Translations under genes and position numbers: made by a program | The notes under the pieces: model-generated | What the model saw: the letters and a program-made list of their open reading frames with translations, nothing else | What the model was told of the DNA's origin: nothing | Database searches by the model: none | Assembly (NCBI GenBank): GCA_040437565.1 | Contig: JBDOQK010000038.1 | Span: 310,001 to 353,539 of the forward strand | Length of the DNA: 43,539 nucleotides | Source of the DNA: Albugo candida | Taxonomy: Eukaryota | Reading direction: 5' to 3' | Shown: piece by piece, positions 2,463 to 32,072 of the stretch | Layout: the number at the start of each line of letters is the position of its first letter | How positions within the stretch are numbered: position 1 is the first letter of the stretch

Positions 2463-4202
2463 TCAAAAGCTTGTTCCGTGTTCCAAAAACTGTTCTCGTG
2501 TAACTTTGCTACACGTTTCATACTGATCTGCAGTCAGAACGCATCCCTCCCAAGCGGCCAAAATTGGACTAACGACTACATAAGTAATTGTAAGAATCGA
2601 AAGAATTGCACGTACTCGCGAATCGAACAAAAATGAATTGGGTAGTGTGTCGGAACAATTGGACGCAATTCGGCGAGCAAACGATCTTTAAAATTCGGGA
2701 ATTTCGAATTCCCTCCAACAAGTAATATTTGCTGATATAATAAAGGCTGAATGTCGGCAGGACACAAATCAATTGACTGCACAATGACCGAAGCGATACC
2801 TGCTTGATCAATACCGATATCAGATGGATAGAAGAGAATTTCTGGAACTCGGATCAGCTCCAAGCCTAATGAAATGTACTGTGTAGATGATGTTAATTGC
2901 GCTGGGTCGACTTCTTTGCCGTTAAAATTTGATATAAAGTCTGGAAGTAGCCAATTTTTGTTTTTGTCCAATGATGTCGAAGTTCGAAATTGCTCCATTT
3001 CCGTTTGGAAGGAAGTGGCGCAATAACACTGAGCTTCTTTGAGTTGCTCCATAAGATTATATTCTTGTGATACATTATATTGACGAGTGGTGATCAATTC
3101 TTTGAGGTAGTTGGTGAGTAGTTTANNNNNNNNNNNNNNNNNNNNNNNNNNNNNNNNNNNNNNNNNNNNNNNNNNNNNNNNNNNNNNNNNNNNNNNNNNN
3201 NNNNNNNNNNNNNNNNNNNNNNNNNGTGGTGATCAATTCTTTGAGGTAGTTGGTGAGTAGTTTACCTCCGACACTTAATCGCTTCACACCCGGATAGTAA
3301 ACCTGACCATTTATCACGGGTATTACATGTGTGAAGGAAAACCCTGTATCCACCACTAAATATCCTTGAGAGCGATTCTTGGACATATGCGCTTGTGTAT
3401 TGACACACATCAACGCACTTGACACACGACAAAACGAATCGAATCCAAACTCCTCAAATACAACTTGATCCATTGTCTCTCCAATCTTCTTTAGGCCAAG
3501 AGGAGGCGCAGTGCATACACAACCAATCTCAGTTCCTGGTGCGATTTCAACATTCAGCANNNNNNNNNNNNNNNNNNNNNNNNNNNNNNNNNNNNNNNNN
3601 NNNNNNNNNNNNNNNNNNNNNNNNNNNNNNNNNNNNNNNNNNNNNNNNNNNNNNNNNNNACTTGACACACGACAAAACGAATCGAATCCAAACTCCTCAA
3701 ATACAACTTGATCCATTGTCTCTCCGATCTTCTTTAGGCCAAGAGGAGGCGCAGTGCATACACAACCAATCTCAGTTCCTGGTGCGATTTCAACATTCAG
3801 CATCTACGTGAAACTATGCTCTTTGAAAGGATATCATTAGTACAAGGTTATGAGGAAAACCTGAGAACTGAATAGGTGACTCCAAATTTCCGACTCAATA
3901 TTCCAATTCACGCAATATCCGCTGCAGGTTATCTATTACATTACGCAGAGAATCAAGTGTGAAAATCATCATTCGTACCGTTCGATTGGTCGTAAATACG
4001 TCATTTTCTCGCGCTGGTGCTCTTTTGTGAGTAACTGTTCTCCAATCCAGAGTTTGCTTCCATCTGAGCTTGAGGCCGCACAGTTCCTGAGCAAATGCGG
4101 ATGATACGTTTTAACCACAGGCGACTCTTGGCCGATTTCCCCGGTGAGGACGACAGAAGCTTTGATTGTGTGGCCGCCATTATCAATAGCCACGACCTTC
4201 AT
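2463..4202 (-). CDS. ARP6: Actin-related protein 6 (SWR1 complex); spliced and crossed by two gaps with duplicated flanks
   Basis: Actin-fold motifs AIDNGGHTIKA, VFEEFGF, VVDTGFSFTHVIP, RLSVGGKLLTNYLKELIT, WLLPDF, VPEILFYPSDIGIDQAGI, GGNSKFPNFKDRL. GT..AG introns near 3978-3924, 3860-3804 and 2616-2570; last exon PILAAWEG...EQFLEHGTSF*. Confidence 0.88.
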
Positions 4203-4309: not shown

Positions 4310-5063
4310 ATGACGTCTTCTTTGGACGATTTGTACGTGACTCTCATCAAACCGATTCCATTTGTTGCTGACTTTATGTGCAATCAGTGCATCCTCTTGG
4401 CTCAAATTGCTGGAATTACATCAAAACATTCGTTGTGTCATTTCGAACACTTCTGTAAAGCCTACAAAAGCTCGTCCTATTTGTGAAAGATTACAGCAAG
4501 ATTCCTCTACATATGTAATTTACGATCGCTCTCATATTGACCAAGTCCAACAGCAATTTACTCAGTTAGATCAACTGGTTCATATCATTGAAACAAATCT
4601 TGTCAAAGCTCTTCGGAACGCCCGAGAACAAGCGAACGTATTAACCGAACCAAATGTAATGGAAACCGAACTATCCATCGTACCGTCTTCGACCTCCAGC
4701 TTCAAGGATCATTTGTCAGCGGATTCGTATCCACACGAATACTCACTACGGAGACGGACGCAGCAATCGTATAAACAAAATAGTGAAAGCGAATTTGAAA
4801 GCAACGAAGCAGAAAGTGACTATCTGGAATCAGAAGCAGACAGTGAAAACAGCTTAGATGCTGGTTGGGCAGTGGAAAAAGTCGTAGATCATCGAATCAA
4901 ACATGAAACGAAGCAGTATTTGGTCAAGTGGAGCGGATACTTTCCCTTTGAGAATACATGGGAGGATGTAGACGCCGTTGAAGAGCATGCGCCAGAAACC
5001 GTCCGCGAATATGAAGCGATTTTGCGGAAGCGGCAAGGAACTATGGGAATGCAGATCTGTTGA
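4310..5063 (+). CDS. Chromodomain-containing protein (one 5' intron)
   Basis: ATG at 4310, GTACGT..CAG intron, coiled/acidic region, then chromodomain WAVEKVVDHRIKHETKQYLVKWSGYFPFENTWED. Confidence 0.8.
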
Positions 5064-5135: not shown

Positions 5136-7680
5136 TCAAGATAAAATAGAGCCAAAGTCCAGAGTCTCCTGCTCAAGCTCCTGCGCCAATTGATTAAAAA
5201 TTGCTTCGTCCTCGTCATCGATCGTTGTACTTGACAGATTTGCTTGTTCGACTTTGGGGCATTGTGTTGTTGCGCGATCGTTAGCGCTACATTCGGTGCT
5301 GTTGGTAGGTTGCGTGAAGGTGCAAAATTCTTGGTCGGTATTCGAGAAGCCTATCGATTGAGAAATCGGTGCAGTCTTTGCAGATTCCACAGAGACAGAA
5401 AGCATCGGATTGATCTTTTCACGTTCCTTGGGTAGTGTATCGTTCATTTTTGGTGTATCCACTCCAGACGAAACCAAAGGGATTAATGCAACGTACGGTG
5501 CCTCATACTGAGGAAGCGATGAATGTCCTTGGTAGATGTAAGGATCCAAGCTTGCGNNNNNNNNNNNNNNNNNNNNNNNNNNNNNNNNNNNNNNNNNNNN
5601 NNNNNNNNNNNNNNNNNNNNNNNNNNNNNNNNNNNNNNNNNNNNNNNNNNNNNNNNCACAGAGACAGAAAGCATCGGATTGATCTTTTCACGTTCCTTGG
5701 GTAGTGTATCGTTCATTTTTGGTGTATCCACTCCAGACGAAACCAAAGGGATTAATGCAACGTACGGTGCCTCATACTGAGGAAGCGATGAATGTCCTTG
5801 GTAGATGTAAGGATCCAAGCTTGCGCCTGGCCTGATAATGACGTCCCTTGGATTGGTTACCATGTCTTCCTGTCCATTGTTTCGCTCGTCAATGCTGTGT
5901 GGCGGTAGCGGCGGCTGTGAATGTTTGGCTCCACTATTCGTTTGAATCAGATCTGATCTGGATGGAGCTGATACTGAGACCGTGAAGTTTGGTCGAAATA
6001 CGTTTTGGAGCGGAGGTTCCGGTGCTATAATCGCCATTTTTTCCTGTTTGATTTGAGCAACCTGAGCATAAGACTGAATGGCCTTTTGCGGATTTTGCTG
6101 TAACGATTTAAATCGAATTTTGACAGAGTCTTCCGTTCGACCTGGAAGCATTTGCGCGATCTGAGACCATTTGTTACCCATCTGATACTGTGCATGCAGC
6201 AGTATTCGATCTTCTTCCTCCGTGTACGGTCCCTTATTGATCATTGGATTCAAATGATTCTTCCAGCGCTCACGGCATTGCTTTGGCGTTCGACCAGGAA
6301 TCTGCTCCGCAATCACAGTCCAATTGTTATAGCCTCTGTAAATTAATGCCTCTAGAATTTGATCTTCACCATAAGACCAATGACCTTTGACCAAGCCAGG
6401 CTTCAATACTTTGCGCCATCGTTGTAAGCATTGCGCGTGGTTCCGATTGGGTACTAATTCGGCGATAGCTTTCCAATTTCGCTCATTGTAAAGCTGCACG
6501 CTGTACCGGAGCGCATCGTCCTGTTGTGTTGTCCATTTAGCGGCTTTTGGTGCATCGGAGTCAAAGTATTCGGAGGTACCGGAAGTATCATCAACCGGTT
6601 CTGTGGACGGTACTGATGACGCGCTCGTTTTCGACGAATTTGACTTTGTGTACGTTGTTGACACCGATTTGAAGGTTCGATACGTCTTGACGGTTCTCGT
6701 GACGTTTCTCGTTTTTGACATTTCAAACATATTTGACGATTTATGGTGCGATGAAAAATGGATCGACTGTTGCGAATGGCTTTTCTGACTTTGCTGCATT
6801 CGGAACCCTTGACGGAATTTCTGGAATCGTTTTCTTTCATCCGGAGCTTTTGCATTGTCGTGCTGCTGTTCCTTATTCTCTGAATCCGGTGTCATGGATT
6901 GTAGTACCGTATCCTTCTCTAATTCACGCAACCTCTTTTCGGGGTCCTCTAATGTGGTGGAGTGAAGCATCTGATTCATTTGCACCAGATCGGCTGGCGT
7001 GACAATCCGCGTGACTGAAGACGATGACTGCGAGCGAGTTACGGATTTATTATCCTTTGATGCACGTCGCATCTCGTCATACCATTTCTTCGTTTGTTTC
7101 TGTTCGCTGAGCTGCGCCGCATCTCCATTTTTAGCCGGATCGCTACAGAGGATGTCCGATTACTGCAATATATAAAATCAAAGCGGTTTTATTACCTGTA
7201 GTTTGGAAATATCGCGTTAAAAGAGTGAAAATTCTTATTCCCATGATTCATGATTTTGACGCGCGATGCCGCTTTCTCGACCTGATTCTGTTTCATACGA
7301 AATACCATCTCGTCATGATGCCCACGATCGCTTTCAGCGATACGATTCTCTTGACAGGCTCTTTGATGAATCGATACTTTATCACCCAATGATTTCAAAA
7401 ACTTTTGTTTTCCTTCCAATTGCGAATTGGCCATTGCTGTAATTACACGAAACTGTTTTTGTGGTTTTAATACGTGTAAATATTCGCATAATTCCTGCGA
7501 CTCATTCGAACTGAGTCCACGCAACGATTTTAGAAGCTCCAAGGAAGCTTCTTTGGGCAGTGAATGAAGCAAATTTGCTAATAAATCACCAAATGTCGAC
7601 GATTCACTCGAAGCTACCGAGTTGACTGAGGATGTGATAGTTGTTGAGGGAGAAGGAGGCGAGGATTGACAGGTTAGCAT
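5136..7680 (-). CDS. R1R2R3 (3R) Myb transcription factor
   Basis: Three Myb repeats (KWTTQQDDALR..., GHWSYGED..., GPYTEEEDRILL...). Intron ~7195-7143 joins the 7680 ORF to the 7072 ORF in frame; C-terminus continues past the gap via the duplicated 5388-5556/5657-5826 segment. Confidence 0.88.
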
Positions 7681-9504: not shown

Positions 9505-10113
9505 CTATTTTAACTGATATAGCGTACCTGAGACATCCACAGCTTCGTGACAGATATTGGAGTGCCCACAGAAACATTCGAATGCCGCTTCCAGAGATTG
9601 TTGTGGTGGATAAGGTATTTTCCCGCGAGGGTGTCGATAGAAATCGCACCGTCCATCAGGACATTGATTGCATTTGCCTCGAAGAACGCCTGTTTGGTCT
9701 CTTCTGAATACGACGTGGTTCAGCAAATCTGCATAAGAAACATGTTGAGCAGTGATAAGATGAGTTTGACGTGAAGCTGTACCCGCTGGTAACGCGCTGA
9801 ATGGAGCCGATTTTTCCATGCTTCTGTAGTTTTTGCGAATGAAAGCTGCACATAAGTCAGCCAGAGACATTGGACAAAGTGCTCCTGCATGCATATCGTG
9901 AGAAATCGACAGTCGACACAAGCTGGAAAAAATACCAAGTTCAATGGAATAAAGATCGCGTAACCGGTATGTTCCATCGTAACCACCAAGCAGAAACATT
10001 TGATTCTCAACGAGAACGGCACGATGAAAGGTTCTGCTACATGGAAGGTTTCCAGTTGTACATACTTCCGACCATGAATTGGTGACTATATCAGCAAAAA
10101 GGTGGATCCGTCA
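9505..10113 (-). CDS. Kelch-repeat protein, C-terminal part (5' part in gap), with Cys/His-rich tail
   Basis: Kelch repeat WSEVCTTGNLPCSRTFHRAVLVENQMFLLGGYDGTYRLRDLY; SLADLCAAFI (BC-box-like); CNQCPDGRC..CFCGH tail. Confidence 0.7.
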
Positions 10114-10404
10114 NNNNNNNNNNNNNNNNNNNNNNNNNNNNNNNNNNNNNNNNNNNNNNNNNNNNNNNNNNNNNNNNNNNNNNNNNNNNNNNNNNNNNNN
10201 NNNNNNNNNNNNNATGGCTCTCACTGTATATGTATCAGTCATGCTTTCTATCAAATATCATTCGATACAGTCGCGCCTGTTTGATAGCCTGGAATTATAA
10301 CTTTTCTATGGTATACGTTCTTCCGCCAAATCGCTTAGAAATCTATTTCGCCAAACGACATACACTCTTGTAGTCGTACACAACGATCCGTATCAATTCC
10401 GTCA

Positions 10405-10986
10405 ATGCTTTCAAGAAATGTACAATCATTCATAGCAATCGCAAGTGCGGCGACATCGCTCTGTTTATGCATCCTTTCTGGCTTCGGATTCAAACGCCTC
10501 CAACATTCCTCCGACTCACTTGATAACAAGACCAATTTCGTATGTCTGTGCCTACAAGGATTTCTATTTGGTGGCACATTAGCACTCGCAGAACTGCAAT
10601 GGGAGCTCTTTTACATCTATTTCGGATTTCTACGTTTCCGTTTGGGTCGAGCAGTGTTATACTTGATCGCGGGAGGGATGACTTTGGTCATTGGAAAAAA
10701 TCTTCATCTTACACTTTTGGTCGTTGAAGGTGTCGCCTGTCTTGTAATCGCTACGATACAGATCACAGCTTCATTGTATTACGGTAATCGCGCTGGAAAT
10801 CAAAGTAAAAGCGTGGAGCCACCAAAAGAAAATGCGCCTATTTCGCGGCCGGTGGTGAGCAAACACGCACCAATACCGCTGGAGAAAGAAGTGTATTTGC
10901 CTCCAGTATTTACTCCTCCACCAACGACATCGGCGAACATTTCGCCCGTTTCTGAGTCAAATGTACCTTCCTGGATGCAGGCGTGA
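10405..10986 (+). CDS. COPI-associated (TVP15-like) multi-pass membrane protein
   Basis: Four hydrophobic helices, AELQW...YFGFLRFRLGRAVLYLIAG signature, Pro-rich tail. Confidence 0.72.
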   Translation: MLSRNVQSFIAIASAATSLCLCILSGFGFKRLQHSSDSLDNKTNFVCLCLQGFLFGGTLALAELQWELFYIYFGFLRFRLGRAVLYLIAGGMTLVIGKNLHLTLLVVEGVACLVIATIQITASLYYGNRAGNQSKSVEPPKENAPISRPVVSKHAPIPLEKEVYLPPVFTPPPTTSANISPVSESNVPSWMQA

Positions 10987-12199
10987 TGTCATTGAACGTG
11001 AGTTTTGTCACAGCAGATCAGATCTGAGTTTATGCAACAACACATCAGTTAGGTATTTGTGTGTTAGAGCAGTTATGAAAAAGAATGCGCATACTCTGCT
11101 TTATTGACTCTATATTTTACATGGTCATGCTCATGGAAATGAGCTAGCCATGAATCTACTTTAAGTCAGCAAAGAGTGATGACGTCGTGCTATGGCGCAC
11201 TATGAGTTACAAAAATTGGGATGAGTGTACAAGATTGAAAGCAGGTAACTGTTAGGCAGCGTTTGTTTAAGTTAACAGGATCCGNNNNNNNNNNNNNNNN
11301 NNNNNNNNNNNNNNNNNNNNNNNNNNNNNNNNNNNNNNNNNNNNNNNNNNNNNNNNNNNNNNNNNNNNNNNNNNNNNNNNNNNNATGCAACAACACATCA
11401 GTTAGGTATTTGTGTGTTAGAGCAGTTATGAAAAAGAACGCGCATACTTTGCTCTATTAACTTTATAATTTACATCGTCATGGTCATGGAAATGAACTAG
11501 CCATGAATCTACTTTAAGTCAGCAAAGAGTGATGACGTCGTACTATGGCGCACTATGAGGTTACAAAAATTGGGATAAGTGTACAAGATTGAAAGCAGGT
11601 AACTGTTAGGAAGTGTTTGTGTTTTAGTTAACAGGATCCGATAGTCTGGTCATACCGTCAGTGAAGCCGTTAGTTAGATGATACCCAATCCTCTTACCTG
11701 TCAGTAGTCAAGAGGAGAGTACAGCATGCACGTTCTATTCAGAACCATTATAGAAGATAGTGTATAACTACCATTGTCAACAACGAGAGTCAGTTATATA
11801 TTATAATACAGAGACTGAGCTTATAAGCTCATATCTAATGCGTGTGATAACCCTCACAATGGATTTGATCTCGCGTTCAATGTTTCAGTGATTTGAAAGA
11901 TTACCTGTTTGTAGAATACGCTGTCGATAGTGAGAAAGCGGAATCAGCAGAACATGTCAGAGTCATTATAAGAGCAATACAAGTAGAATGGATACATTTA
12001 TTAGACAAGGATCAATGCACGCTTTCCTAGTCTATTCGATAAGCGGTGAAGAATGCAATTTCGAATCACCTCGAGAACGTGATCTCTGATCCGGAGTGGA
12101 CAATGTTGTAGACTTCAAAGGATTGTTATCGAATGTTCCTTGGCAACATCTCACAGGTCGTACCTTCTTTGGGGAGTTCATAATTTCCATTCTTATTTC

Positions 12200-12213
12200 T
12201 CATTTCCAAACTT
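12200..12213 (+). promoter_or_regulatory. Oomycete Inr/FPR-like core promoter of secreted gene A
   Basis: TCATTTCCAAACTT ~30 nt upstream of ATG 12244, resembling the consensus TCAYTYBNNNWTTY. Confidence 0.5.
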
Positions 12214-12243
12214 ACCATCGACCGTACAACCGATTTCACCATT

Positions 12244-12873
12244 ATGAAGATATCTATCATCATTTACATGCTTCAACAAGCGATTGGTGTTTTTGGAAAT
12301 AACCCCGGATGTGAGTTTACTGGCAGGATGGAATGTAGCTGGAAAGAAATGGATGGTTATAAGCACAAGTTCATGATCAAATATATTGATTCTAAACGTG
12401 TTGTTTACTGTGATAAAGAACCAAACTCAAATAAGATAACAATTGATATTTGGCCTCTGAGCGGTTGTGATTACGCAGTTACTTTCAAGAAGGACTTTGT
12501 GTCTTTTAGTGATGAACGACAACAGGAGAACAAAGCCGAAGCCAGTACATTCAATTTAACTAATTACGCCACAATTGTGTCTCGCCTTGGTAAAGATTTC
12601 GGGCCTCACCAAATTAGTTTCGACTTGAACGAAAACGCAAATTTGGAGGTATCAAAAACTGTTTTTAATTATCTCGAAAAAAACCTACTACATCAACTTT
12701 GCATAAAAGTACATGAACGCAAGTTTTGTCCCAATTTGCAGGAAGAAATGGACATCGCGGTGTGCGTGGCAGAAGACGATTCATTCGTATTAAATATTGG
12801 AGCTATGATTCAATATAACGTACGCTTTGTGAACACACATGAAAATGGACTTTTGTTCCAATTTAGGCCTTAA
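12244..12873 (+). CDS. Secreted Cys-rich candidate effector, paralog A (209 aa)
   Basis: Intronless ORF, signal-peptide-like MKISIIIYMLQQAIGVFG, 7 Cys, intact paralog at 15627. Confidence 0.8.
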   Translation: MKISIIIYMLQQAIGVFGNNPGCEFTGRMECSWKEMDGYKHKFMIKYIDSKRVVYCDKEPNSNKITIDIWPLSGCDYAVTFKKDFVSFSDERQQENKAEASTFNLTNYATIVSRLGKDFGPHQISFDLNENANLEVSKTVFNYLEKNLLHQLCIKVHERKFCPNLQEEMDIAVCVAEDDSFVLNIGAMIQYNVRFVNTHENGLLFQFRP

Positions 12874-13354
12874 GCAGAGCAATAATAAGTTCGGGTTTCT
12901 ATTTGCGAGTTATTGACTTCTGCTCCTTTCAAGCAACAGTATCTTATTTCAGGTGGAAGTTTCTCCCCTACAAATTATGATGATTTGTCCTCTATTTGTT
13001 TTTTGGATATGTAGACCATGCTAGTTGAGACATGAACACAAAAACCGCTTCTTCTCAACTAAAGTCGTTGCGAGCACTCGACCAAGTTTAAATACCTGAT
13101 TACGAGTCTGAGTGGTAATGAGTCCTAGACTCATCAAACCGACTACATCTGATACAATACTTATCAAAACTTATTCATGAACCATGGTAATCAGATGTTC
13201 CATTGCATCATACGAAATGCTGCACGGAGTGGTAGGCGACCAAGTAGAAGATGCNNNNNNNNNNNNNNNNNNNNNNNNNNNNNNNNNNNNNNNNNNNNNN
13301 NNNNNNNNNNNNNNNNNNNNNNNNNNNNNNNNNNNNNNNNNNNNNNNNNNNNNN

Positions 13355-13515
13355 ACTCAACTGTCTTCAACCGCACCAAGTTCACTATTTGTGACTTTTC
13401 AAGCCACATCTGCATGTATTGCATGTTATTTATTGTAGTTTAGGCATTTAGAGAAGTCATTTACGTCTAATTCTAGTAATATAGACAACTTCAACTGAGC
13501 TGGGTACGGACCCCC
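13355..13515 (-). mobile_element. Short repeat 'A' abutting the SINE-head 21-mer GGGGTCCGTACCCAGCTCAGT (partial, gap-bounded)
   Basis: Reverse complement matches 16873-16944 over ~70 bp. Confidence 0.6.
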
Positions 13516-15311
13516 AATAGTACCAGTGGAATCGTCTGCTTCTATCGTTCCAGTAACAAATTCTGACACATTGAACCGTCCATCTAAAAGATATCGTATC
13601 GAATACTAACAAAAGAATGCGGCAATAGAATCTCCATCATCTTACCAAGATGCCCTGGATTCACCTCAATCGAAACTATGGTAACTGCAATCCAGGCGAT
13701 CTTCTAGCAAACTTGGACGGTCGAAACAAAGAAACCAGACATACAATAGGCGACCGGAACCAAATGGGTATTTACAAACAAACGAAATAAACATGGTTAG
13801 GTCGAGCGGTTTAAGGCAAGATTGGTGACACTCGGATATCGACAAACTTATGGTGCTGACTACACAGATACGTACTCTACAGTCGCGAATTTGAACTCAA
13901 TTAGTATTTTCCTGGCGATTTGCTGCCATCAAGTACTTACCATTCATCAGTATGATGCTGATACGGCCTTTCTTAACGGTTATCTGGAAGAAGATGTGTT
14001 CATCTATTCAACCCAAGTGTTAAAAGCAAGCCAAATCAGATTTTCAAGCTCAATCGAAGTCTATATGGACTTGAAGAAGCATCTGTGACTTGGTACAAGA
14101 CAATATCGAATGTATTCGCTCGGATGGGTTTTGCAAAGTGTCTATCAGCCTCATGTATGTTTGTACGCAAAGATTCCAAGTCATGGGTTATGCCACATTG
14201 TATGCCGATGACATGCTGATCGGAGCCAAAAACATTGACTCGATCAAGAAAGTTGCAAACGAACTTTCTAATCACTTCAGTCTAAAGATTCTAGGAAAGG
14301 TGCAATTTATCCTTGGCAATGAAGTGTAATACAAACAAGAGTTGCGACAAATGAAGATCAGTCAAGGAGCTTGCATACAAAGACTGGTCGAGAAGTCCAA
14401 CCAAGTCAACGCGAAACCAGTATATAATCCAAATGCTCCAGGGTTTTCTTAACGAATTCGAGAAAAAAAAGATTTGAGAATGGAAAAGCGCCCATATCGC
14501 TCACTTGTCGGCTCTCCTTCTGTACGTTGCAATGGTCACAAGGCCAGATATTGCTTTCGAGGTCGTCCAGATCAGTCGACACCTGGAACAACCAAGTGAA
14601 CAACACTGGAATGCAGCAATCCGTGTTTTGCGATACTTGAACTCAACCACAGCCAAAGGCATATGTTATGAGGCCAAGCCAGGAAATATCGAAGTCAGTG
14701 CTTACAGTGATGCGGATTGGGCAAGCGAGAAGGAGACAAGAACATCAACCTCCAGTATAATGGTGATGATAAACAACTCTCCAGTGATATTCAAATCAAA
14801 ACTGCAGCAGAGTGTGGCTCTCAGCACAGCCGAAGCTGAGTACACTGCTATCTCGTTATGCATACAGTAAGTCATGTGGGTCAAAAGTTTATTATCAGAA
14901 TTAAAGATGAGGATCGATGATTCAGTGGTTATCTAGCAAGCGTGCTTGTCAGCAAGCTACTCGCGATGCATCATCTGGCGCTGCTGCCAACTTATTCATG
15001 AAGACAACCGAAGTGCAATTGCAATTGCCAACAACGATGGATATCAAAGTCGAGCGAATTATATCGACATGCGGTACCATTTTGTCCGTGAACAAATAAA
15101 AGCCGAAAAGATCAAGCTCCAATACATTGACACCAAGTTTCAGCAAGCTGATTTTTTGACCAAGTCAGTGTCGACGAAGATATTTGAGCAGCTTCTGATT
15201 AAGTCCAACATCAAGAATTTATCGTCCAGGGGGGGTATTGACGCTGATGTCTCTCAACCAGTGTGGAACACATCAGTCTAATCAATCTGCAGCTATTGGA
15301 CAATAAAGTAG
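13516..15311 (+). mobile_element. Degenerate Ty1/Copia RT-RNase H with PPT and start of 3' LTR
   Basis: RFKARLVTLGYRQTYGADYTDTYS, QYDADTAFLNGYLEE, LYADDMLI, TRPDIAF, AYSDADWA, QQSVALSTAEAEY, IDMRYHFVRE, ADFLTK; PPT AGGGGGGG then TATTG at 15236; many stops and frameshifts. Confidence 0.93.
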
Positions 15312-15585
15312 TGGCTGTGAGCGTCTAGTACGAGAAGGCTTTGGCTAGCTAGTAAAGTGAACTAAGGACCTACTACATTTAATATATCTTACTTTCCAAA
15401 TTTTATCTTAAGTGCTCAAAACCATCCATTTGAGCACTTAAGATAAAATTTGGAGAGGAGTGCTCAAAACCAACCTTTTGAGCACTTCAGATAAAATTTG
15501 TAGAGGAAGTTAAATTAAATGTAGGAGGTCCTTAGTTCAATTTACTAGCTAGTCTGAGCCTTCTCGTACTAGACGCCCACAGCCA
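15312..15585. repeat. 274-bp imperfect foldback palindrome (MITE-like) with nested perfect 26-bp hairpin and internal ~48-bp duplication
   Basis: Ends TGGCTGTGAGCGTCTAGTACGAGAAGGCT... / ...AGCCTTCTCGTACTAGACGCCCACAGCCA; 15395-15420 is the exact reverse complement of 15429-15454. Confidence 0.9.
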
Positions 15586-15626
15586 TTTCCAAAGTTACCA
15601 TCGACCGTGCAACCGATTTCACCATT

Positions 15627-16268
15627 ATGAAGATATCTATCATCATTTACATGCTTCAACAAGCGATTGGTGTTTTTGGAAATAACCCCAGATGTGAGTT
15701 TACTGGCAGGATGAAATGTAGCTGGGAAGAAATTGATGGTTATAAGCATGAGTTCACGATCAAATATATTGATTCTAAACGTGTTGTTTACTGTGATAGA
15801 GAACCAAACTCAAAAGAGATGACAATTGGTTCATGGCCGTGGATCGGTTGTGAGTACGCAAATACTTTCAAGAAGGACTTTGTGTCTTTTAGTGATAAAC
15901 AACAAGAGGTGACCAAAGCCGAAGCCAGTACATGGGATTTAACTTACTTCGCCACAATTGTGTCTCGCCTTGGTGTAAATTTCGGGCCTCACGAAATTAG
16001 TTTCGACTTGAACGAAAACGCAGAATGCAAGGTATCAAGTAATGTTTTTAATTATCTCAAAGAAAACCTACTACATGATCTTTGCATAAAAGTACACGAA
16101 CGCGAGTTTTGTCCCATTTTTCAGGAAAAAATGGACATCAAGGTGTGCGTGGCAAAAGACGATTCATTTGTATTAAATATTGGAGCTATGATTCATTATA
16201 ACGCACGCTTTGTGAATACACGTGAAAGAGGTTTTCAGGTCCAATTTGGGCTTGAAGCAGAGCAATAA
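15627..16268 (+). CDS. Secreted Cys-rich candidate effector, paralog B (213 aa)
   Basis: Same signal peptide as paralog A; ~76% aa identity by manual alignment; all 7 Cys kept plus one extra. Confidence 0.8.
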   Translation: MKISIIIYMLQQAIGVFGNNPRCEFTGRMKCSWEEIDGYKHEFTIKYIDSKRVVYCDREPNSKEMTIGSWPWIGCEYANTFKKDFVSFSDKQQEVTKAEASTWDLTYFATIVSRLGVNFGPHEISFDLNENAECKVSSNVFNYLKENLLHDLCIKVHEREFCPIFQEKMDIKVCVAKDDSFVLNIGAMIHYNARFVNTRERGFQVQFGLEAEQ

Positions 16269-16851
16269 TAAGTTCGGGTTTATATTTGCGAGTTGTTGAC
16301 TTCTGCTCCTTTCAAGCACCAGTATCTCATTTCAGGGGGAAGTTTCTCTCCTACAAATTATGATGATTTGTCCTCTATTTGCTATTTGGATATGTAGACC
16401 ATGCTAGTTGAGACATGAACACAAAAACCGCTTTTTCTCAACTAAAGTCGTTGCGAGCACTCGAAAAAGTTCAAATACCTGATCACGAGTCTGTGTGGTA
16501 ATGAGTCCTAGACTCATCAAACCGACTACATCTGATACAATACTTATCAAAACTTATTCATGAACCATGGGAATCAGATGTTCCATTGCATCATACGAAA
16601 TGCTGCACGGAGTGGTAGGCGACCAAGTAGAAGATGCAATCTGAATTAGAAAAACATCATATGTTCTTTTGCAGCCTTCAAGGTTTCTACGCCCCTAGCA
16701 TGGTAATTTGTATAAGGCATATGTATACCCGGATTAAGGAGTCGATTCACTACTATCGCTGCCGTCCATAATGATGAAAGCCGTCAGTATTAATGCTTTC
16801 ATCGAGCTAACATTATGAAATAGAGCTTGATAGTGATCTAACTGAAGGACC

Positions 16852-16944
16852 AAAAAAAAAAAGAAAAAAAAAGGGGTCTCCGTACCCAGCTCAGTTGAAG
16901 GTGTCTATATTACTAGAATTAGACTAACTGACTTCTCTAGTTGC
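16852..16944 (+). mobile_element. Insertion: A-run + SINE-head 21-mer + repeat 'A' (partial, gap-bounded)
   Basis: Present after GGACCA in the 16572-16852 copy, absent from the second copy of the same flank (17045-17325). Confidence 0.6.
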
Positions 16945-18939
16945 NNNNNNNNNNNNNNNNNNNNNNNNNNNNNNNNNNNNNNNNNNNNNNNNNNNNNNNN
17001 NNNNNNNNNNNNNNNNNNNNNNNNNNNNNNNNNNNNNNNNNNNNAATCAGATGTTCCATTGCATCATACGAAATGCTGCACGGAGTGGTAGGCGACCAAG
17101 TAGAAGATGCAATCTGAATTAGAAAAACATCATATGTTCTTCTGCAGCCTTCAAGGTTTCTACGCCCCTAGCATGGTAATTTGTATAAGGCATATGTATA
17201 CCCGGATTAAGGAGTCGATTCACTACTATCGCTACCGTCCATAATGATGAATGCCGTCAGTATTAATGCTTTCATCGAGCTAACACTGTGAAATAGAGCT
17301 TGATAGTGATCTAACTCAAGGACCATGATAATGTGATCCCCATGTAATCCACCACTAAACAATTGAATTACCCTTGTATGCCCATCCTTCAGTATTGGCA
17401 CGAAGCCTCGAGACAAACATTTTCTTCGTCGTAACGCTACTTCATGAAAAGTATACACTCATTTCAGATCGCTCAATGGTAGCAATTAGACACATGAGAG
17501 CGATGAAACCTCTGTTGTGCCTAGAAAGGGTCCCAAAGTCAGTACATTCAGGCACTCCTTTAAACATAAACCGGGTATTCAGTATCATGGATAGCTGCGA
17601 AATTATACGTATGGGATGCAATTATGCTCGTCCTTGGCCTCGGACTAAGTCCAAAGGCGAAGCTTGTTTTTTTTGTATGCCGCGCAATCCTTCAAAGGCA
17701 CATAAGAGCAATCTTAGCTGCAGGAGGAAGCGGATCGAACGAAACAAAAGTAATTTATCGTGAAAACACCAAAGTACGCAATAATTACATGCATACTATC
17801 ACTACCATCTACTTGATCCTCAGGCGATCAGATCGCAGTTGGTAGCGCTGATGCGGCGATTGGAATCATTGATGTTTCGGATCCTGTGAAAGTGAATTAC
17901 ACATGATTCATTGACATATTATTGCGTTTCCAAGGCAATTTTGCGCTTCACGAAGGAGATTGAAATAACTTGTTGCGTCATTCGCCTGAAGTAGTTGGAA
18001 GATAGCTACTTCTTCGCCATTTTTCTTCGATTTTTCGACTACCGAATTCAATACGACATTTCACAAGCGGAATGGAAATACTTTGCGTTGCATGCGATAG
18101 AAATGATAGCCAATCAGTAGATTCAATGAGTCCATTGACATTGACATCAAACATACCAAACAGCGATCCAAAGTGATGACAACAACAGTCGATTTCCACG
18201 ATTTGTAAAGAGAACCGATAAAATGGGAGAGATAACGACAAATTAGCGTACCAGAGGGCTTTGAACCGGTGACGGGATGGACAGGGGAGCCTGAATCCAA
18301 TTGCATTTGAAGTGCCGCTGCGTCTCCTCAAACGATAACACCCGTGTCATAGAATCTAATGAATCACGATGACATACGCTTCGGGAAGTCCGTCAAATTG
18401 TTGCAGCAAATCTTTCGGATACACGCACTACCGTCCACAATGAGTTTAAAGTACTTCGTGGATTCCTGTGGAAGGCAGTCGTAACCCTGCAGCAGTCGTC
18501 TATTCTGAAATCGCCTGCATCGTTTGTACGGATCAATCCTCATGCAAGAAGGATCCTCTTTGAGTGACTCAATGGATCGAATTTGTGTAGTGACTCGAAG
18601 GCGTCCTGATAAGTTGTGAAAGGACTTGGAGAAGAGGGGCCTTCTGCTCGGGTTTGGAGGTTGAGCGTATCGAGCACGCTTGGATCGCTTCAACGAACAC
18701 TTTACCATAGTAAGGAGTTTGACACACATTGAACGACAATTCAATGAAAAAAGCAAAGAAGCATCATAAAAGCTTACCGTGTTCAAGCGCTTGAGCAGAA
18801 ATTGCCGTAACTGCTAAATTTGTCCATTTCCAAAACGTCATTTCCGCCTGAAAACGATCTCAATACGCGCAATTCAGCGCAAAGGGAGGTTTGAAATGCT
18901 TCACACGTTCTGGTTCCAGAACTACATCGTCAAATAATA

Positions 18940-19371
18940 ATGTTCAGACGCTTACACCCTTTCATCCTTCCTGTTTTGGTATTTTCGGTAGATCTTAAGC
19001 GAAGAATTGACGTGATGACAAGTTCAACGTTCAAGAATATCGAATATCATTTGGTGTTCAAGTTACCTCTCGAGTCTACAATCTGTTTTGGTGTAGTTCA
19101 GGGTTCTTTTGACAATGTAATAGCAGCGTATATGCCTGTAGACCCTACGGAGATTACCTGCAAATTGGTGAAGAATTATAAAGCGAAGCAGTTTGAGTAC
19201 CTTACACAGGATGGTCGATATGTCGCTCTGTTTGGTGTCGAGTCCACTGCTCCTTTTATTGGCAGTAGCGGAGCATGCATGAATTTATTTGATTGCGCTA
19301 GACCCAGTCTATGTATCAAAGGCAAGTGCTCCAATAACGCACCAGGCGTCGTCAGTGGATTCTTATCATAA
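18940..19371 (+). CDS. Putative secreted Cys-containing protein (possibly truncated or frameshifted)
   Basis: 143-codon ATG ORF with hydrophobic N-terminus (FILPVLVFS) and 6 Cys, in a gene-sparse context. Confidence 0.45.
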   Translation: MFRRLHPFILPVLVFSVDLKRRIDVMTSSTFKNIEYHLVFKLPLESTICFGVVQGSFDNVIAAYMPVDPTEITCKLVKNYKAKQFEYLTQDGRYVALFGVESTAPFIGSSGACMNLFDCARPSLCIKGKCSNNAPGVVSGFLS

Positions 19372-20959
19372 TTTTGAGATTGGAACTGTAGCTCGAAAAA
19401 GAAGAGTTGTTTACATTGTGCGCGGTCAAAACTACCAGCAAGAAATCGTGTTCTTTGACTGTCACTTTTCTTTGTTTCCTTTCTCTAGCATTCCGTGTTC
19501 GGCAGTAGCGGACGTGTGAACCGTGTCATCTGCAGCACTATGTACGACGAAGTGCTATCCGAAAAGACGCAACGTGAACATTGTATGAAGTCGCTGTTCG
19601 GATGATATTCAATGCTCATCCTCGCACGACCTATTTCGATATCGCTGTATATTAGAAGCGGTCGAACTCTTTTTATCTGTATTCTGACTCTTGTCTTGTG
19701 TTTATTTTATATTCAGAGGGCGGAAATCTCCACTTAAGTAACGTTTTGCGAAAGTTTCTCTGTTGGCATGTTAGTGGAATTCCAAAGTATGAATATCGGG
19801 TTGTTTGAACTTACTCTTGTTGCGCTGACTACTTACTAGGAAATAGACAATAGAGAATAGATACTGGAAAATGAAGAAAAACNNNNNNNNNNNNNNNNNN
19901 NNNNNNNNNNNNNNNNNNNNNNNNNNNNNNNNNNNNNNNNNNNNNNNNNNNNNNNNNNNNNNNNNNNNNNNNNNNNNNNNNNCTGGAAAATGAAGAAAAA
20001 CCTAAGGAATAAACACCAGACACTAAACACTGATATGAATGGAGACAAGATGAGCACGAACGAAATCGTACTGCTTGCCTATGAGTTATATTTGATATAT
20101 ACAACGACGCTGAAGTTCATGAATCATTCCACTATCCCCGCGTATTAAAGGACGCATTATTACGAGATCAAGCGAAATGTCTCAAGAACTGCTTAGCATG
20201 AAACGACTTCATTTTACGGAAGAATTGAAGTAGACAAGCAGTCTCACCGGCTATCCAGAGTAATCTAAAAATGACAATAATTTTGCTACTTTCTAAGAGA
20301 GGCGTTGGTATCTTGCGCTTTGAAGATTTCATGGCACCCCAATCCAATATGACAACTTGTAAGCTTTGAGAACGCGTTTCCTCCTAAAGCAATAGCGTGA
20401 TGGCCATCATATTGAAACGTCTGGATGGAAATCAAAGAATCATCAATGTTTTTCTTGTATCGTAGCAGGAAGTTGATGAAGCCCTTAGAATGCTCGATAT
20501 CGTTGTTTTACCGTCCGACAAGAAAAGTTAATTGGATCTCTTATTCGGCTTGCGGAATTTGCTATTGCCGGATTGGAGATAAAAGATGGAGCATAAGAGA
20601 CCAACTAATTCTAGTACGCCATTTGAAGCGTACGGATAATATTGCACGGTAATCAAAGATGAGAAGTCTTTAAAATGCCGAGATGCATTGCTCTAGTTTG
20701 ATTCTGTATAGGCTTTCACCATTAAAGCTTTTCGTTCACGCCAATGTAAATGACGGTATCACCATCTATACGTAAAGCATGTATCCGGTACATGAAATGC
20801 TTTTCAGAACAACACCAAATAATGCTCAAACTTTATCGAAATAAAATCCTTGGAGCTCGCGAGGAGCACTCGGCAACAGTTTGACCGATGATCGATATGG
20901 TTCATAAAATACCTACTGCTTAGTCGATCACGGGAAATCATGGGAACTTTTAGGTATGA

Positions 20960-25550: not shown

Positions 25551-25754
25551 GGTGTCCGTACTCAGCTCAGTCGGACAGGCACTTGAGCGCACGGACCCCC
25601 TGCAGGAGGTCGTTATTTTTGATCCCCGGCATATCTACCTCCCTAGGTTTGAAGTCAGACTTAAGTGATATTCACACGGTCAGGGACTCATGATAGGATA
25701 AGGAAGGTAGTTTAAGAACCAGATAAACAGTGTAATGAAATCCTTGACAAAGTA
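25551..25754 (+). mobile_element. tRNA-derived SINE family 'C', internally deleted copy
   Basis: Matches 36981-37229 and 42043-42290; head AGCTCAGTCGG; ends CCTTGACAAAGTA. Confidence 0.8.
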
Positions 25755-26939
25755 TGATCGTGTGCTACTGTTTGGTATGGACTGCATAGACACAATGAAT
25801 CGTTTCTGCCGTCTGGAAGGAGACGCAATAGAGAAGACTAGAGAATGAAAAAGTACTCATATTGAGAATACTTGAGTCTGCGAGGTTCTATACGATATTA
25901 GTACGCAATAAAATTCGTATCATTTAATGCGACACAATCTGAAATTCCTTTCGTGGTAGAGCGCGGAATAAGATTCGTTTTTGTGCCTTGTGCTTGGATG
26001 AGAATTTCCGTAATGACTGCTGTATTTCTGCACATCGAATCGTACAGCTTTACAGTTTGCGGGCTAAAATAACCGCAGGCGGTATATGTTATGATGTGGG
26101 ATTCGTTGGATATCGCAAGTAAGTCACCAAAGTGTTGGCAGTGCTGCCACAATCGGTGTGTGATAAGATTATTGTCAGGAACGGTATCACTCATCTTATT
26201 GGTTGCAAAAGCTATATTAGATACTTTATTCTCCAATGCCGCGAAATGAGTAAGTGCAATAAGCTGGGCGCACTTCGAACAGGTAGGCATTTGTCGATAA
26301 TCAATAATCGTTGATGTAGCAAAATATTAAGAGAAATGTTGTTGCATACTGCATATTTTCTGTTCATTCCTGTTTCTCACACATACGTTTTCCTTTTTTT
26401 CCTTCTACAACTTCAGTCCTGCGTCTTCAATCTTCCGGCGAGTTTGGTTCCCTCTTCTACAAAATATTGTAGTAATTCAGCCAATAAAAGCTAGTGTCTC
26501 CCCCTAAATGTCGTCCTGCAAATAGCGTTACACCTTAGGAACGTACCGTCTTATAAACAGGCTTCGTTGTGTAGAACTATATTATAATTTATTAAGAAAC
26601 TTTCTATCAGCCAAAGACATTCGCTTACGCTGATTCAGATGCACTACACTAGTACATGACCTTCAGCATTAATCGTAGCCTTTACTACAAATGGCCGTAA
26701 ACTTTTAGAAGAAAAAGAACACGTGAAGAGAGAGAACAGCCTCTTAGTGTGACATCAAGAAATGACTCACAACGCCTATACCCGTCCGATTGTGTCCGGC
26801 ACAAGCTTGTAACACATTACTGCATTACATCAGGTCAGTAAACCAGAATCTCTCTCATAGAGCTCTCACTTACCAATGGGAGTGATGATACGGCCGAGGG
26901 TGTGCGGCATGGAGCTCAAAATGAGATCTTACTATTGGC

Positions 26940-28735: not shown

Positions 28736-30913
28736 CCAGCGCAGGCCTAACTATAACCTTTCCCATGTAACGACCCTGTCATCTTTAATCACTGCCTTTA
28801 TCCGTGTGGCTTATGACAAGGATGAGCAGTTTTATTATGTTGCTACGTGCGCTTGTTGGGTAGAGTCCCCGTATCGTTGTCCTTCATGATGCGGAGTTTA
28901 TGAATCGAATCCTCTATGAGGTACAGGATACTGCGTTGGGTGGTCATCTCGGTCGTGAGAAGACCTATAGCTCAGTGAGCCAGCACTATTGGTGGCCCGA
29001 AATCTATAAATTGGTAAGCACATACGTCTGTACGTGTAAAACGGAAAAACGGGTCAAACCCTCCGTGCATGCGGCTGCACCGCTAGCTAGGTTAGCCGTA
29101 TCCAAGGAGTGCTGGGAGTTCATTAGTATGGATTTTGTGTGTGCCCTATCACAAGATTCGGTGGAAATGGAGGGGGGGCTTTTGCTGATGACTGTGCCGG
29201 ACTCCACGATGGTGAAGTTACAGCTACGGTGTTTATCTATCGAGTGTTCCGCCAACACGGTTTGCCTATGGCAATTTCACGGATAGAGATCTTTGCTTCG
29301 GTGGGAGCTTTTGGAAGTCCATTTACAAGGTGCATGGCACCCGATTGGACATGTCCAATGTTCATCATCCGTAGACCGATGGTCAAACTGAGCGACTTTA
29401 TCAAGGTACCGGTCACATCTTACGCAGCGTTTGCGTTGATACACGTAAGCGTTGGAGCTCTATGCTCCCTGTTGTTGCTTTTTGGTTAAACAACTCTATT
29501 CATGCCTCTACCGACCATACTCCGTCCTACATGAATGGGCTCACTCATCCTCGCGTTACATTAAAGCTATTGCTGCGTGGTTCAGGGCTTGTTGGGGAAG
29601 AGATTGCCGGTTATTTGCTGATGTCAGCTCTACTACACTTGAGGAACAGGTTAAATGTCTCACGACATGATTCAATGGCTGAAAGCCAAGAAATACAGTA
29701 GGAACAAGCTGATGCTAAAAACAGAAATTTTATTGAAAGTTATGAGGTCGGAGAACAGGTATTCCTCAGTAATAAAAACTTACATACAAATGTAGTGTCC
29801 GCTGTCTCCAAGGTAAAGTTTCGATCGCGCTTCATTAGACCATTCGCGGTCATGACTAAGAAGGGCCTTGCTTACACGCTTAACGTTCCGCGCAAATTGC
29901 ACACACACAGTGTTTCACGTCGACCAACTCAAGCCGTATCGGGATACGCCCGACGCTGACTTTGAGGTAATTGCGCCGCGTTTCTTGGACTTGCCAAAAG
30001 CTGGTGCATCCGAACAAGGATGTCAAGCTGAGCTGCAGCCAGATTTGGACATGCTCAAACGCCTGAAGAAGGGTTTTTACCGCGTCAAGCGTACGCTGAG
30101 CCTGCTCAAAGTCTCGACGAGGAACGTCACTTCATGAACCAATTTTTTTTTGTAGTCCTCCACCGATACACCGACCGTCACCGTCGCTGCCTATCAAGCA
30201 AGGGAACTTACAGTTCCGAGTTAAGAAGATCCTCGCTCGACGTCGTCCTCATGTTTAAAAACAATATCTTGTGAAGTGGCGAAGGTATCGTAGTAATGAA
30301 CATCGTAGCCACGATCATCTTGAGACCAAAGGCGCTTCCCATAAGTAGTGGTATGGGCAATCAGATTGCAGGACAAAGCTTGGCCTGAACTCGAGACTAC
30401 AGGTATAGGCGTAACGCGGGCGAGAATGGTACGCAACTGGCCTTTGGCCACAAGCTTGGCATACTCATACCGAAGCTTTCGTTCGAGACGAAAGTCGGAC
30501 ACGTTGACGCTTGCTCTTAGCGCCATCATTCTGTGGATTGTGAAGAATTTCATTACACTGTTATTCTGCTTCTTTAACTACCTTCTTGATCCTATCATGA
30601 GTCCCGGACCGTGTGAAGATCACTTAGACTTAGGGAGGCAGGTATGTATCAATCTTATTGCTTAGTTGGGCTCAAACCGCTGCCTACAATGCTGTTGAGC
30701 AGACTGAAGACCTCCCGCAGCGAACGGCGTGCTCANNNNNNNNNNNNNNNNNNNNNNNNNNNNNNNNNNNNNNNNNNNNNNNNNNNNNNNNNNNNNNNNN
30801 NNNNNNNNNNNNNNNNNNNNNNNNNNNNNNNNNNNTTTTTTTTTGTAGTCCTCCACCGATACACCGACCGTCACCGTCGCTGCCTATCAAGCAAGGGAAC
30901 TTACAGTTCCGAG

Positions 30914-32072
30914 TTAAGAAGATCCTCGCTCGACGTCGTCCTCATGTTTAAAAACAATATCTTGTGAAGTGGCGAAGGTATCGTAGTAATGAACATCGTA
31001 GCCACGATCATCTTGAGACCAAAGGCGCTTCCCATAAGTAGTGGTATGGGCAATCAGATTGCAGGACAAAGCTTGGCCTGAACTCGAGACTACAGGTATA
31101 GGCGTAACGCGGGCGAGAATGGTACGCAACTGGCCTTTGGCCACAAGCTTGGCATACTCATACCGAAGCTTTCGTTCGAGACGAAAGTCGGACACGTTGA
31201 CGCTTGCTCTTAGCGCCATCATTCTGTGGATTGTGAAGAATTTCATTACACTGTTATTCTGCTTCTTTAACTACCTTCTTGATCCTATCATGAGTCCCGG
31301 ACCGTGTGAAGATCACTTAGACTTAGGGAGGCAGGTATGTATCAATCTTATTGCTTAGTTGGGCTCAAACCGCTGCCTACAATGCTGTTGAGCAGACTGA
31401 AGACCTCCCGCAGCGAACGGCGTGCTCAACTGTATGAGCAGGGGCGGTCCCGAACCATCATGCTGTGGAATCGTCGGACTCGATGAACCCAGCGAACGAA
31501 GCTGTTGTCTTCCTCCTCCCTTGATTTTCCTAGAAAAAGAGTATCGGCACGCTCTGAATCGACTGAACTGTTGCACTAGGTACTTGCCCTTCAAGGTGTG
31601 TCCTCTATTCGCTTTCGGAATCAAGTAAGGCTCCGGGTACTTTTCGCGAAGTACCATCCCGGATGCCAAGTTCGTGGACGAAGGAGCTTCCGGTCCGACG
31701 TCCACCTCTACAACGTATAGTCCACCGTTCGACGGATACACTCTTCCACCTCGGGTGGTGTAAAAACATAGTCCCAATGACTATTCAGCACCGAGGAGGT
31801 CTGTTACCGGCGCATAGCGGTCTCATCTTGCCAAGGAATCAGCTGTTGTTGCTCATCGAGCGGGTTGATGATGTCGCCGATGATGCGTTGACAGCGCAAC
31901 GTTCGACGAATGGATTTGGTGGAAGACGAAGCTCTGTCTCTAAAATGGTTTTGCCGGGAACTTCCCATTCTTCTTTATTGAGACTGGTATCGCTACCACA
32001 GTCCACCTCCTCATCGAGCTCTAGGTTACAGGAACGGACCTGAGGGTCGTTTCGTGGCGATGCCATGGTCAT
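30914..32072 (-). pseudogene. Antisense ORF of the Gypsy element, interrupted by a SINE and frameshifts
   Basis: Removing the SINE and one TSD restores EEDNSFVRWVHRVRRFHSMMALRASVNVSDFRLERKLRYEYAKLVAKGQLR; 5' part MASPRNDPQ... lies just inside the PPT. Confidence 0.6.
31231..31454 (-). mobile_element. Diverged SINE 'C' copy with 15-bp TSD (partly duplicated at ~30538-30735 by assembly)
   Basis: Body matches the SINE C copies; TSD CCATCATTCTGTGGA (31216-31230) / CCATCATGCTGTGGA (31455-31469). Confidence 0.8.

Follow-up and report, generated by a model that had tools for sequence, protein, structure and literature searches.

The long palindrome that stands directly upstream of gene B is best filed as part of the LTR of a Copia retrotransposon, lying beside a member of an Albugo-only gene family that was probably retrocopied and is probably mis-scaffolded. 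The apparent fusion of a hairpin to a promoter thus comes down, most likely, to the end of an ordinary retrotransposon, and the locus is an ordinary case of a transposable element (TE) beside an effector candidate, with a retrocopy twist. To the reading as a whole, in which the palindrome belongs to the LTR, B derives from cDNA, the two arrived in one capture and the order of A and B in the assembly is probably wrong, we assign a probability of about one half. The features on which this reading draws are collected in Table 1, numbered from the first base of the window, i.e., the whole stretch of 43,539 nt that was analysed. The window is a scaffold with twelve gaps of 100 N each, and three of its contigs are considered here: X (11385-13254), with gene A, Y (13355-16944), with the Copia piece, the hairpin and gene B, and Z, which follows Y.

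Table 1. Coordinates of the features around genes A and B, in window numbering.
Feature	Position	Strand	Basis or remark
Gene A Inr-like motif (TCATTTC), 38-44 nt upstream of the ATG	12200-12206	+	pattern YCAYTYY
Gene A, intact 209-aa ORF	12244-12873	+	contig X (11385-13254)
100-N gap, contig X to contig Y	13255-13354	.	no X-Y overlap
Repeat R, left copy (terminus ~13498), plus ~17 nt common to the right copy	13355-13516	+	loose contig ends
Ty1/Copia interior, dead, 5'-truncated (RT and RNase H part)	13517-15238	+	frames, stops, RVT_2
Polypurine-tract-like G-run where the Copia reading frame ends	15229-15235	+	sequence
Putative 3' LTR, 347 bp, TG...CA	15239-15585	+	contig counts, termini
AATAAA, 4 nt 5' of the palindrome	15302-15307	+	only one in 15200-15700
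Palindrome, 274 bp	15312-15585	+	arms 15312-15438 / 15459-15585
Inr-like motif CCATTTC of gene B; first three letters are the palindrome end	15583-15589	+	pattern YCAYTYY
Block in common with the A locus, made up of the 5' leader, the ORF of B and 583 nt past its stop	15586-16851	+	corresponds to 12203-13254 plus 17111-17324
Gene B, intact 213-aa ORF, Albugo-only family, hydrophobic N-terminus	15627-16268	+	contig Y
A11GA9 run, read as a poly(A) tail	16852-16872	+	directly after the last base common to the A locus
Repeat R, right inverted copy with the same ~17-nt extension, to the contig end	16873-16944	-	alignment
100-N gap, contig Y to contig Z	16945-17044	.	last 92 nt of Y absent from Z
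Start of contig Z, continuation of the gene A 3' flank	17045-17324	+	up to the stop of homology with the B block

The palindrome and its repeat unit

The 274-bp hairpin is present where the first-pass annotation had placed it, as confirmed by inverted-repeat search, self-BLAST and folding. A repeat search resolves it into two arms of 127 nt each, 86% complementary and separated by a 20-nt spacer, and in self-BLAST it returns a reverse-complement match of 274 nt at 81.8%. Pairing is near-perfect over the outermost ~72 nt, the centre is asymmetric and contains two small inner hairpins (15392-15420/15429-15457 and 15446-15469/15476-15499), and the 3' terminus reads ...CAGCCA, with its last base at 15585. 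As RNA, the palindrome folds with an MFE of -175 kcal/mol, compared with -59.8 +/- 4.8 kcal/mol for 200 dinucleotide shuffles, none of which was as good (0/200; z = -24.1). The longest open frames inside it measure 26-27 aa, and a comparison of 10000-19000 with the window gave no similarity of the hairpin to A or B, only its own reverse-complement match. Metagenome scans with the conserved hairpin terminus returned 0 loci. With an E limit of 1, an Rfam search of contig Y gave 11 matches, which fall far short of the gathering scores; these are look-alikes of miRNA precursors and leaders that fall on the inner hairpin (~15377-15492) and reflect a generic hairpin shape and no family.

Parts of contig Y occur in 20 sequencing runs, none of them recorded as RNA, with a best share of 0.62. 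Four runs from four studies were compared with 11385-19882 at 80% likeness, the DNA runs among them being X1, X2 and X6. The counts given below are numbers of contigs showing a variant, the contig sequences themselves being unseen, and the right half of the LTR is covered by the bin mean only; contig counts were preferred, with summed depth, which is not a copy number, serving as a rough guide. In X1, X2 and X6, respectively, the number of contigs rises from 5, 3 and 7 at 15234 to 11, 10 and 14 at 15242, and stands at 12, 11 and 15 at 15287, at 13, 10 and 13 at 15308, at 15, 11 and 15 at 15320, and at 14, 8 and 14 at 15342. Depth in the hairpin bin amounts to 1048, 550 and 740, against 53-78 for the single contigs listed for these runs. 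At 15320, the letter of the right arm is found in all contigs of X1 and X2, and the letter of the window accounts for 28 of 1440 depth units in X6. The palindrome is a dispersed, multi-copy repeat of this Albugo genome and is not private to B.

The interval from 15239 to 15585 reads best as the 3' LTR of a dead Ty1/Copia element, because the contig counts climb at ~15239 and do not fall at the left edge of the hairpin; since the hairpin and its left flank are found on similar contig numbers elsewhere, the two are probably one repeat unit, namely the LTR itself. RVT_2 matches in three of the five stop-free pieces of the interior (E 7.7e-17 to 2.4e-7, 13801-14326) bear out the earlier proposal of a Copia remnant upstream of B and on the same strand. 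The reading frames of this interior are broken, gag, protease and integrase are missing, and the RNase H-like C-terminal frame extends to 15278. The putative LTR has TG at 15239-15240 and CA at 15584-15585, with three letters between the G-run and the TG and an uncertainty of about 3 nt in its start, and the palindrome forms its last 274 bp (~79%), no LTR being left to the right of the hairpin. Its boundaries rest on contig counts and termini, neither a 5' LTR nor a second LTR copy being readable, and self-comparison found no other copy within the window. The likeness to a Ty1/Copia 3' LTR beside a gene comprises the RVT_2 interior, the polypurine run, the TG...CA unit, the common orientation with the downstream gene, and a repeat unit that appears commoner than the interior, judged from the contigs of other runs that show a variant; Copia, LTR, B and the A-run all point the same way. 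The case differs in that most of the LTR is a single long palindrome, and in that the element is 5'-truncated near 13517. To our knowledge, LTRs built mostly of one long palindrome are not usual.

Variants of this reading were also considered. The hairpin as an LTR of its own, starting at 15312 and likewise bounded by TG...CA, was rejected, the contig counts climbing at ~15239 and not at 15312. A nested element that entered the LTR long ago and was multiplied along with it may be an alternative to a single LTR. Contig and depth figures fall from the left part of the LTR into the hairpin in X2 and X6, as would likewise be expected if part of the LTR copies lacked the hairpin. In X1 and X2, the distances to the contig end at 15308, 15320 and 15342 (65, 77 and 81) agree with a single contig that covers ~15243-15423, and it counts against the LTR reading that this crossing contig could be the same locus of another isolate.

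The hairpin had initially, and with reserve, been interpreted as a PIF/Harbinger-group MITE nested in the LTR. It shares with foldback and MITE elements, including PIF/Harbinger-derived ones, a short, non-coding sequence, long inverted arms and many copies, but differs from them in the absence of a target-site duplication and in its ends: on the right, hairpin and LTR-like unit stop together, and on the left the hairpin passes into LTR-like sequence in other contigs. The flanking letters AGT and ATT are no duplication, the test for a TWA target-site duplication failed, and no adjacent direct repeats of 2-12 nt were found around the hairpin. AAAGT repeats, offset by 2 and 5 nt, were rejected as a 5-bp duplication, the right copy lying within DNA common to gene A. 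Elsewhere, the hairpin is found on many contigs with counts that are continuous with its LTR-like left flank, individual flanks being unread, and the similar contig numbers of flank and hairpin speak for one repeat unit and against a nested MITE.

A stem-loop with a function in an LTR is described for HTLV, where the Rex-responsive element brings the poly(A) signal near a distant poly(A) site (excerpt of PMC6714889, citing Bar-Shira 1991). In the present LTR, an AATAAA lies 4 nt before a stable 274-nt hairpin, so that the 3' base of the hairpin would come near this putative signal in folded RNA. By analogy, the element could use the hairpin in forming the 3' end of its RNA; the likeness is positional only, AATAAA occurring 23 times on the + strand of the window.

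Ends of the block shared by A and B

The similarity between A and B begins exactly where the palindrome ends. In blastn, 15584-16637 corresponds to 12201-13254 at 91.6% over 1054 nt, a match that begins 43 nt before the ATG of B, or 41 nt if the shared CA is left out, and no similarity was detected between A and B upstream of 15584; the 41 bp of leader homology described earlier are thereby confirmed. It also holds that the last CA of the palindrome completes the Inr-like motif of B, CCATTTC at 15583. The oomycete INR follows the pattern YCAYTYY, and initiation usually takes place at the A (excerpt of PMC3599244). The shared block starts on an INR match conserved in A and B, the start site being predicted from the pattern only, and on reading of the sequence the downstream FPR pattern MWTTTNC is unmatched in both genes. 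A random breakpoint would lie within 2 nt of an INR match in about 0.7% of cases. Of the proposal that B lost the upstream DNA of A and gained an LTR with a separate hairpin nested in it, the first part stands, given the lack of upstream similarity and the Copia remnant, and the separate nested element finds no support.

At the other end, the homology of the B contig with the A locus stops at 16851 (equivalent to 17324 in Z) and is followed by the A-run and then by the inverted repeat R. The A11GA9 run is the only run of A or T of at least 10 nt in the window, and it would lie this close (+/-2 nt) to a given breakpoint by chance with a probability of about 1e-4. This poly(A)-like end of the homology block had been missed by the first-pass annotation. 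Since the block reaches from the predicted start to the A-run in a common orientation, B would most simply be an RNA- or cDNA-derived copy of an A-type gene, and the ends of the block suggest an RNA-mediated origin.

In several respects, B resembles known products of this kind. As in processed retrocopies and break-captured cDNA, the similarity to the parent is confined to the block from the predicted start to the A-run, and the shared block closes with a poly(A)-like tail on its 3' side. As in break-captured cDNA, a truncated, cDNA-like piece of a retroelement is joined to it at the natural LTR end, and a target-site duplication is absent around the insert, none being found at 13517/16872 or 15586/16872. 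Break-capture events can occur without target-site duplications, and precedents for cDNA capture include Ty1 cDNA capture and retrosequences in yeast, L1-type retroposition and template jumping. Processed retrocopies differ from the present case in that the ends of the parent transcript are here predicted only. A and B align without gaps over 1054 nt and the ORF of A is continuous, so that there was no intron to lose. A 3' UTR of ~590 nt, which would be long for a compact genome, counts against a retrocopy, as do the absence of a target-site duplication and that of an AATAAA-like hexamer, none being found in the 583 nt after the B stop. In a literature search, retrogenes and oomycetes occurred together in no title or abstract found.

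The LTR and B are enclosed by inverted copies of the repeat R, which flank 13517-16872 and reach the segment on both sides. The left copy aligns with the reverse complement of 16873-16944 with 65 of 73 columns identical, and loose contig ends mark it in the other runs, with 22-23 at 13465 in X1 and X2 and 14 in X6, and with 7-13 in each of the three DNA runs at 13496-13501. Without the segment, the R flanks would be a loop-free palindrome. A tRNA scan found 0 tRNA genes in the window, and there is no sign of a tRNA-derived R. It can be envisaged that a 3.36-kb piece (truncated Copia, LTR, B and A-run) came to be centred in an inverted repeat of this very abundant element when cDNA was captured or inserted, in a single event, where the R palindrome had broken. 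A partial Copia cDNA ending at the LTR terminus would have been joined to the complete, tailed cDNA of an A-type mRNA, and all three boundaries (the terminus of the LTR, the 5' end of the mRNA and its poly(A) tail) would be natural ends of molecules. The hairpin would then touch B because the transcription unit of B starts at the very end of the LTR.

A history of DNA events only, in which B is a DNA-duplicated paralog whose promoter was later entered by Copia 41 nt before the ATG, and in which A-run and R copies arose later and independently, appears rather unlikely. Plain integration would account for the Copia interior and for termini of the TG...CA type, promoters are frequent landing sites of LTR elements in other organisms, and there is neither a target-site duplication nor a poly(A)-signal hexamer to back a retrocopy. 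However, such a history leaves to coincidence that the single long A-run of the window stands exactly at the end of the homology (~1e-4), that the breakpoint falls on the INR (~0.7% for a random site), and that the ~17 extra nt common to the inverted R copies extend up to the segment.

Order and relationship of the A and B contigs

Consecutive contigs of the scaffold overlap end to start at 6 of the 12 gaps, over 39-652 nt, five of these overlaps being 99.3-100% identical and one 93.4%. The last 66 nt of X are identical, end to start, to the first 66 nt of Z, which begins one base past the last mismatch between X and Y (13188/16571). Contig Y matches Z at 97.9% (16572-16852 to 17045-17325) and then continues for 92 nt. 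Judged from these contig ends, the locus of gene A continues from X into Z, whereas Y belongs to a path of its own that is similar to the X-Z junction and has R on both sides. As Y is a repeat-bounded island between two contigs that overlap each other, the A-B order is probably wrong and the tandem arrangement probably a scaffolding artefact; it counts against this that the scaffolder may have used read-pair evidence. The pair of tandem paralogs assumed at the outset is not supported, given the 66 identical nt common to the contig of A and the contig after that of B. An apparent tandem pair of effector-like genes can come from misplacing a homologous, repeat-bounded contig, which calls for caution with effector clusters taken from draft oomycete assemblies.

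The same arrangement could be explained if A and B were diverged alleles (haplotigs) that were scaffolded consecutively, the hairpin and LTR then being an allelic insertion polymorphism, which we consider improbable. Y covers exactly the region of the X-Z junction, and the overlap at the preceding gap is identical at only 93.4% (11032-11284 vs 11385-11640), as expected for mixed haplotypes. Yet an allele would not run out in a poly(A) stretch with unrelated repeat DNA behind it, and X1 and X2 each contain a B contig and a second contig of a family member (depths 65 and 78, and 64 and 64, which are like those of other single contigs of X1 and X2 here, depth being a weak guide). The poly(A) boundary argues for A and B as paralogs at different sites.

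The proteins of A and B are 76% identical, and the closest named relative of B is an uncharacterised Albugo candida protein with 67% identity. A hydrophobic N-terminus is common to A, B and this relative, on the basis of which A and B may be secreted and are considered candidate effectors only. No Pfam family was found for either gene, and a protein atlas named no family, with best feature scores of at most 0.87 and TM of at most 0.32 on a poor model (pLDDT 0.34). Between A and B, 72 of 630 nt differ in the CDS and 23 of 639 nt in the non-coding parts of the shared block. Nonsynonymous change, at 60 of 502 sites, amounts to 3.3 times the divergence of these flanks (23/639; p = 7e-8), and the dN/dS of 1.56 is alone not significant (Fisher p = 0.20). 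This pattern of divergence, together with the intact ORFs, fits a fast-diversifying family. If B is indeed a retrocopy, RNA-mediated duplication would be feeding a fast-evolving, Albugo-only family of putatively secreted proteins, and the new copy would depend on LTR sequence for its expression.

The contigs of other isolates point to different degrees of constancy at the two genes. That the three DNA runs contain the organism is seen from near-identical contigs: B is covered over 15660-16367 by 708-nt contigs of X1 and X2 with 1 other letter, and over 15867-16367 by a contig of X6 with 0 other letters; contig Z is matched by a 2315-nt piece with 43 other letters. In X1 and in X2, one contig follows B to 15828 and then A from 12460, and the 14 other letters between these points, read in frame, give five residues found at that place in P0002, an A. 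candida relative. The mixed contigs of X1 and X2 indicate that these isolates carry a near-unchanged B and a different, P0002-type member; in them, B is conserved and the A-type member is variable. The region 17514-18854 is covered by two contigs in X1 and in X2 and is therefore duplicated or highly heterozygous in these isolates, which complicates the simple picture. Cover is little over part of the gene A CDS (12521-12804) in X1 and X2 and over the tail of Y (16497-17064) in X1 and X6, and nothing was drawn from it.

Expression of gene B and a possible role of hairpin RNA

In the first-pass annotation, read-through from the LTR into a nested foldback MITE was thought to yield hairpin RNA that silences or rewires B, providing a switch between two tandem paralogs. 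A long and very stable inverted repeat does stand directly 5' of B, in the same orientation as Copia, and B is without the upstream DNA of A. In Phytophthora infestans, silencing and heterochromatin spread over ~300 bp and are detectable to 600 bp, and the fusion with a TE silenced an effector gene (Whisson et al. 2012; excerpts of PMC3429519). The present locus is comparable to these cases of TE-proximal effector silencing in that a gene for a candidate secreted protein lies 0-41 nt from a TE, within the 300-600 bp, and differs in the species and in that the TE piece is here an inverted repeat able to form dsRNA alone.

Nevertheless, such a switch is clearly unlikely. The flanks AGT and ATT lack the target-site duplication of a MITE, the tandem arrangement is doubtful, and the hairpin, being continuous with the left part of the LTR and dispersed like it, would give RNA that is not locus-specific. 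The hairpin contains no A or B sequence and is without identity to its supposed target, and post-transcriptional silencing of B is not expected unless its transcripts start upstream. Because the hairpin is dispersed and resembles neither gene, any small RNAs would correspond to the LTR family, leaving the mRNA of B unmatched. A hairpin switch specific to this gene is not supported.

Under the cDNA capture that we prefer, the expression of B can be outlined as follows. Lacking the upstream DNA of A, B would have to rely on the rebuilt Inr and on whatever the LTR provides. For transcripts from the rebuilt Inr, the hairpin would lie outside the mRNA, and small RNAs of the LTR could reach B only by chromatin spreading; like other genes with a TE only a few hundred bases away, B could be dampened by silencing of the LTR family. 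For transcripts from inside or upstream of the LTR, a leader hairpin of -175 kcal/mol should hinder scanning and could feed Dicer. A bolder version, very unlikely in its entirety, would make B a working retrogene under a palindromic Copia LTR only, with an HTLV-like hairpin for 3'-end formation, the LTR as both promoter donor and source of dsRNA, epigenetic on/off states between isolates, and an A-type locus that diversifies by recombination. In run X20, which was guessed to be RNA, a few short contigs are found, also on intergenic DNA (e.g., 11816-12016), and no reading of expression was taken from it.

Finally, it is extremely unlikely that the palindrome is a foldback artefact of assembly or library, the condition under which the earlier interpretation would have been void: the draft scaffold does have many unmerged overlaps, but the arms of artefactual foldbacks are identical, whereas here they differ at 14-18% of positions and enclose asymmetric inner hairpins, and 8-15 contigs per run carry similar sequence in three other DNA runs.

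Mosaic member of the A/B family

The related genes A and B belong to a family confined to Albugo. Isolates other than this one, represented by the DNA runs X1 and X2, carry a third member of the family, which is B-like upstream and A-like downstream of a joint between positions 15828 (in B) and 12460 (in A). The B-matching and A-matching parts are separated by a 14-nt replaced stretch, and the counterpart of this member among A. candida proteins is P0002. Such a mosaic points tentatively to recombination or gene conversion among the family's members.

Repetitive elements around gene B and in the right half

The contig that carries gene B, the palindrome and a dead, 5'-truncated Copia copy is bounded at both ends by a repeat, here called R, in inverted orientation (13355-13516 and 16873-16944). 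This repeat is very abundant: 22-23 loose contig ends fall at 13465 in X1 and X2 and 14 in X6, further loose ends lie at 13496-13501 (7-13 each in the three DNA runs), and in X1 its bin depth is about 20,800 vs about 75 for single contigs, a summed depth that does not give copy number. Read inward from the terminus, R begins with CAGTTGAAG, which we take to be Tc1/mariner-like. For A. laibachii, a legend of PMC3130010 names mariner and copia as the most abundant elements.

Within the Copia copy, 64 nt (14930-14993) are skipped by contigs in all four runs, with a joint from 14929 to 14994 (one contig each in X1, X2 and X20, two in X6), and this segment looks like an insertion private to the copy in the window. 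In the gene-poor right half, a repeat of about 100-200 nt is dispersed over several sites in both orientations; the copies probably represent LTRs, or else pieces, of a Gypsy-type element.

Apparent host genes and scaffold joins

The chromodomain ORF and the three-repeat Myb protein look like ordinary host genes of a gene-dense left part of the window, and the actin-domain ORFs probably represent a single actin-related gene broken by an unmerged overlap. The window has 12 gaps of 100 N, and at six of them the contigs on either side overlap by 39-652 nt; these are unmerged overlaps, a source of false direct repeats in the scaffold. Identity is 99.3-100% at five of them, unlike the gap at 11285, where 11032-11284 and 11385-11640 share 93.4% with indels; this overlap may be a join of two diverged haplotypes shortly upstream of gene A.

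Features located in the window (window positions)
Feature	Position	Strand	Remark
Actin-domain ORFs	2576-3803	-	split by scaffold gap 3126-3225
Chromodomain ORF	4659-5063	+	
Three-repeat Myb protein	5483-7072	-	
Integrase_H2C2 ORF	28900-29286		near dispersed-repeat copies
Dispersed repeat, ~100-200 nt	25553-25755, 30538-30735, 31231-31432, 37012-37230, 42089-42291	both	
Overlapping-contig gaps	3126, 3560, 5557, 11285, 30736, 36002		end-vs-start contig comparison
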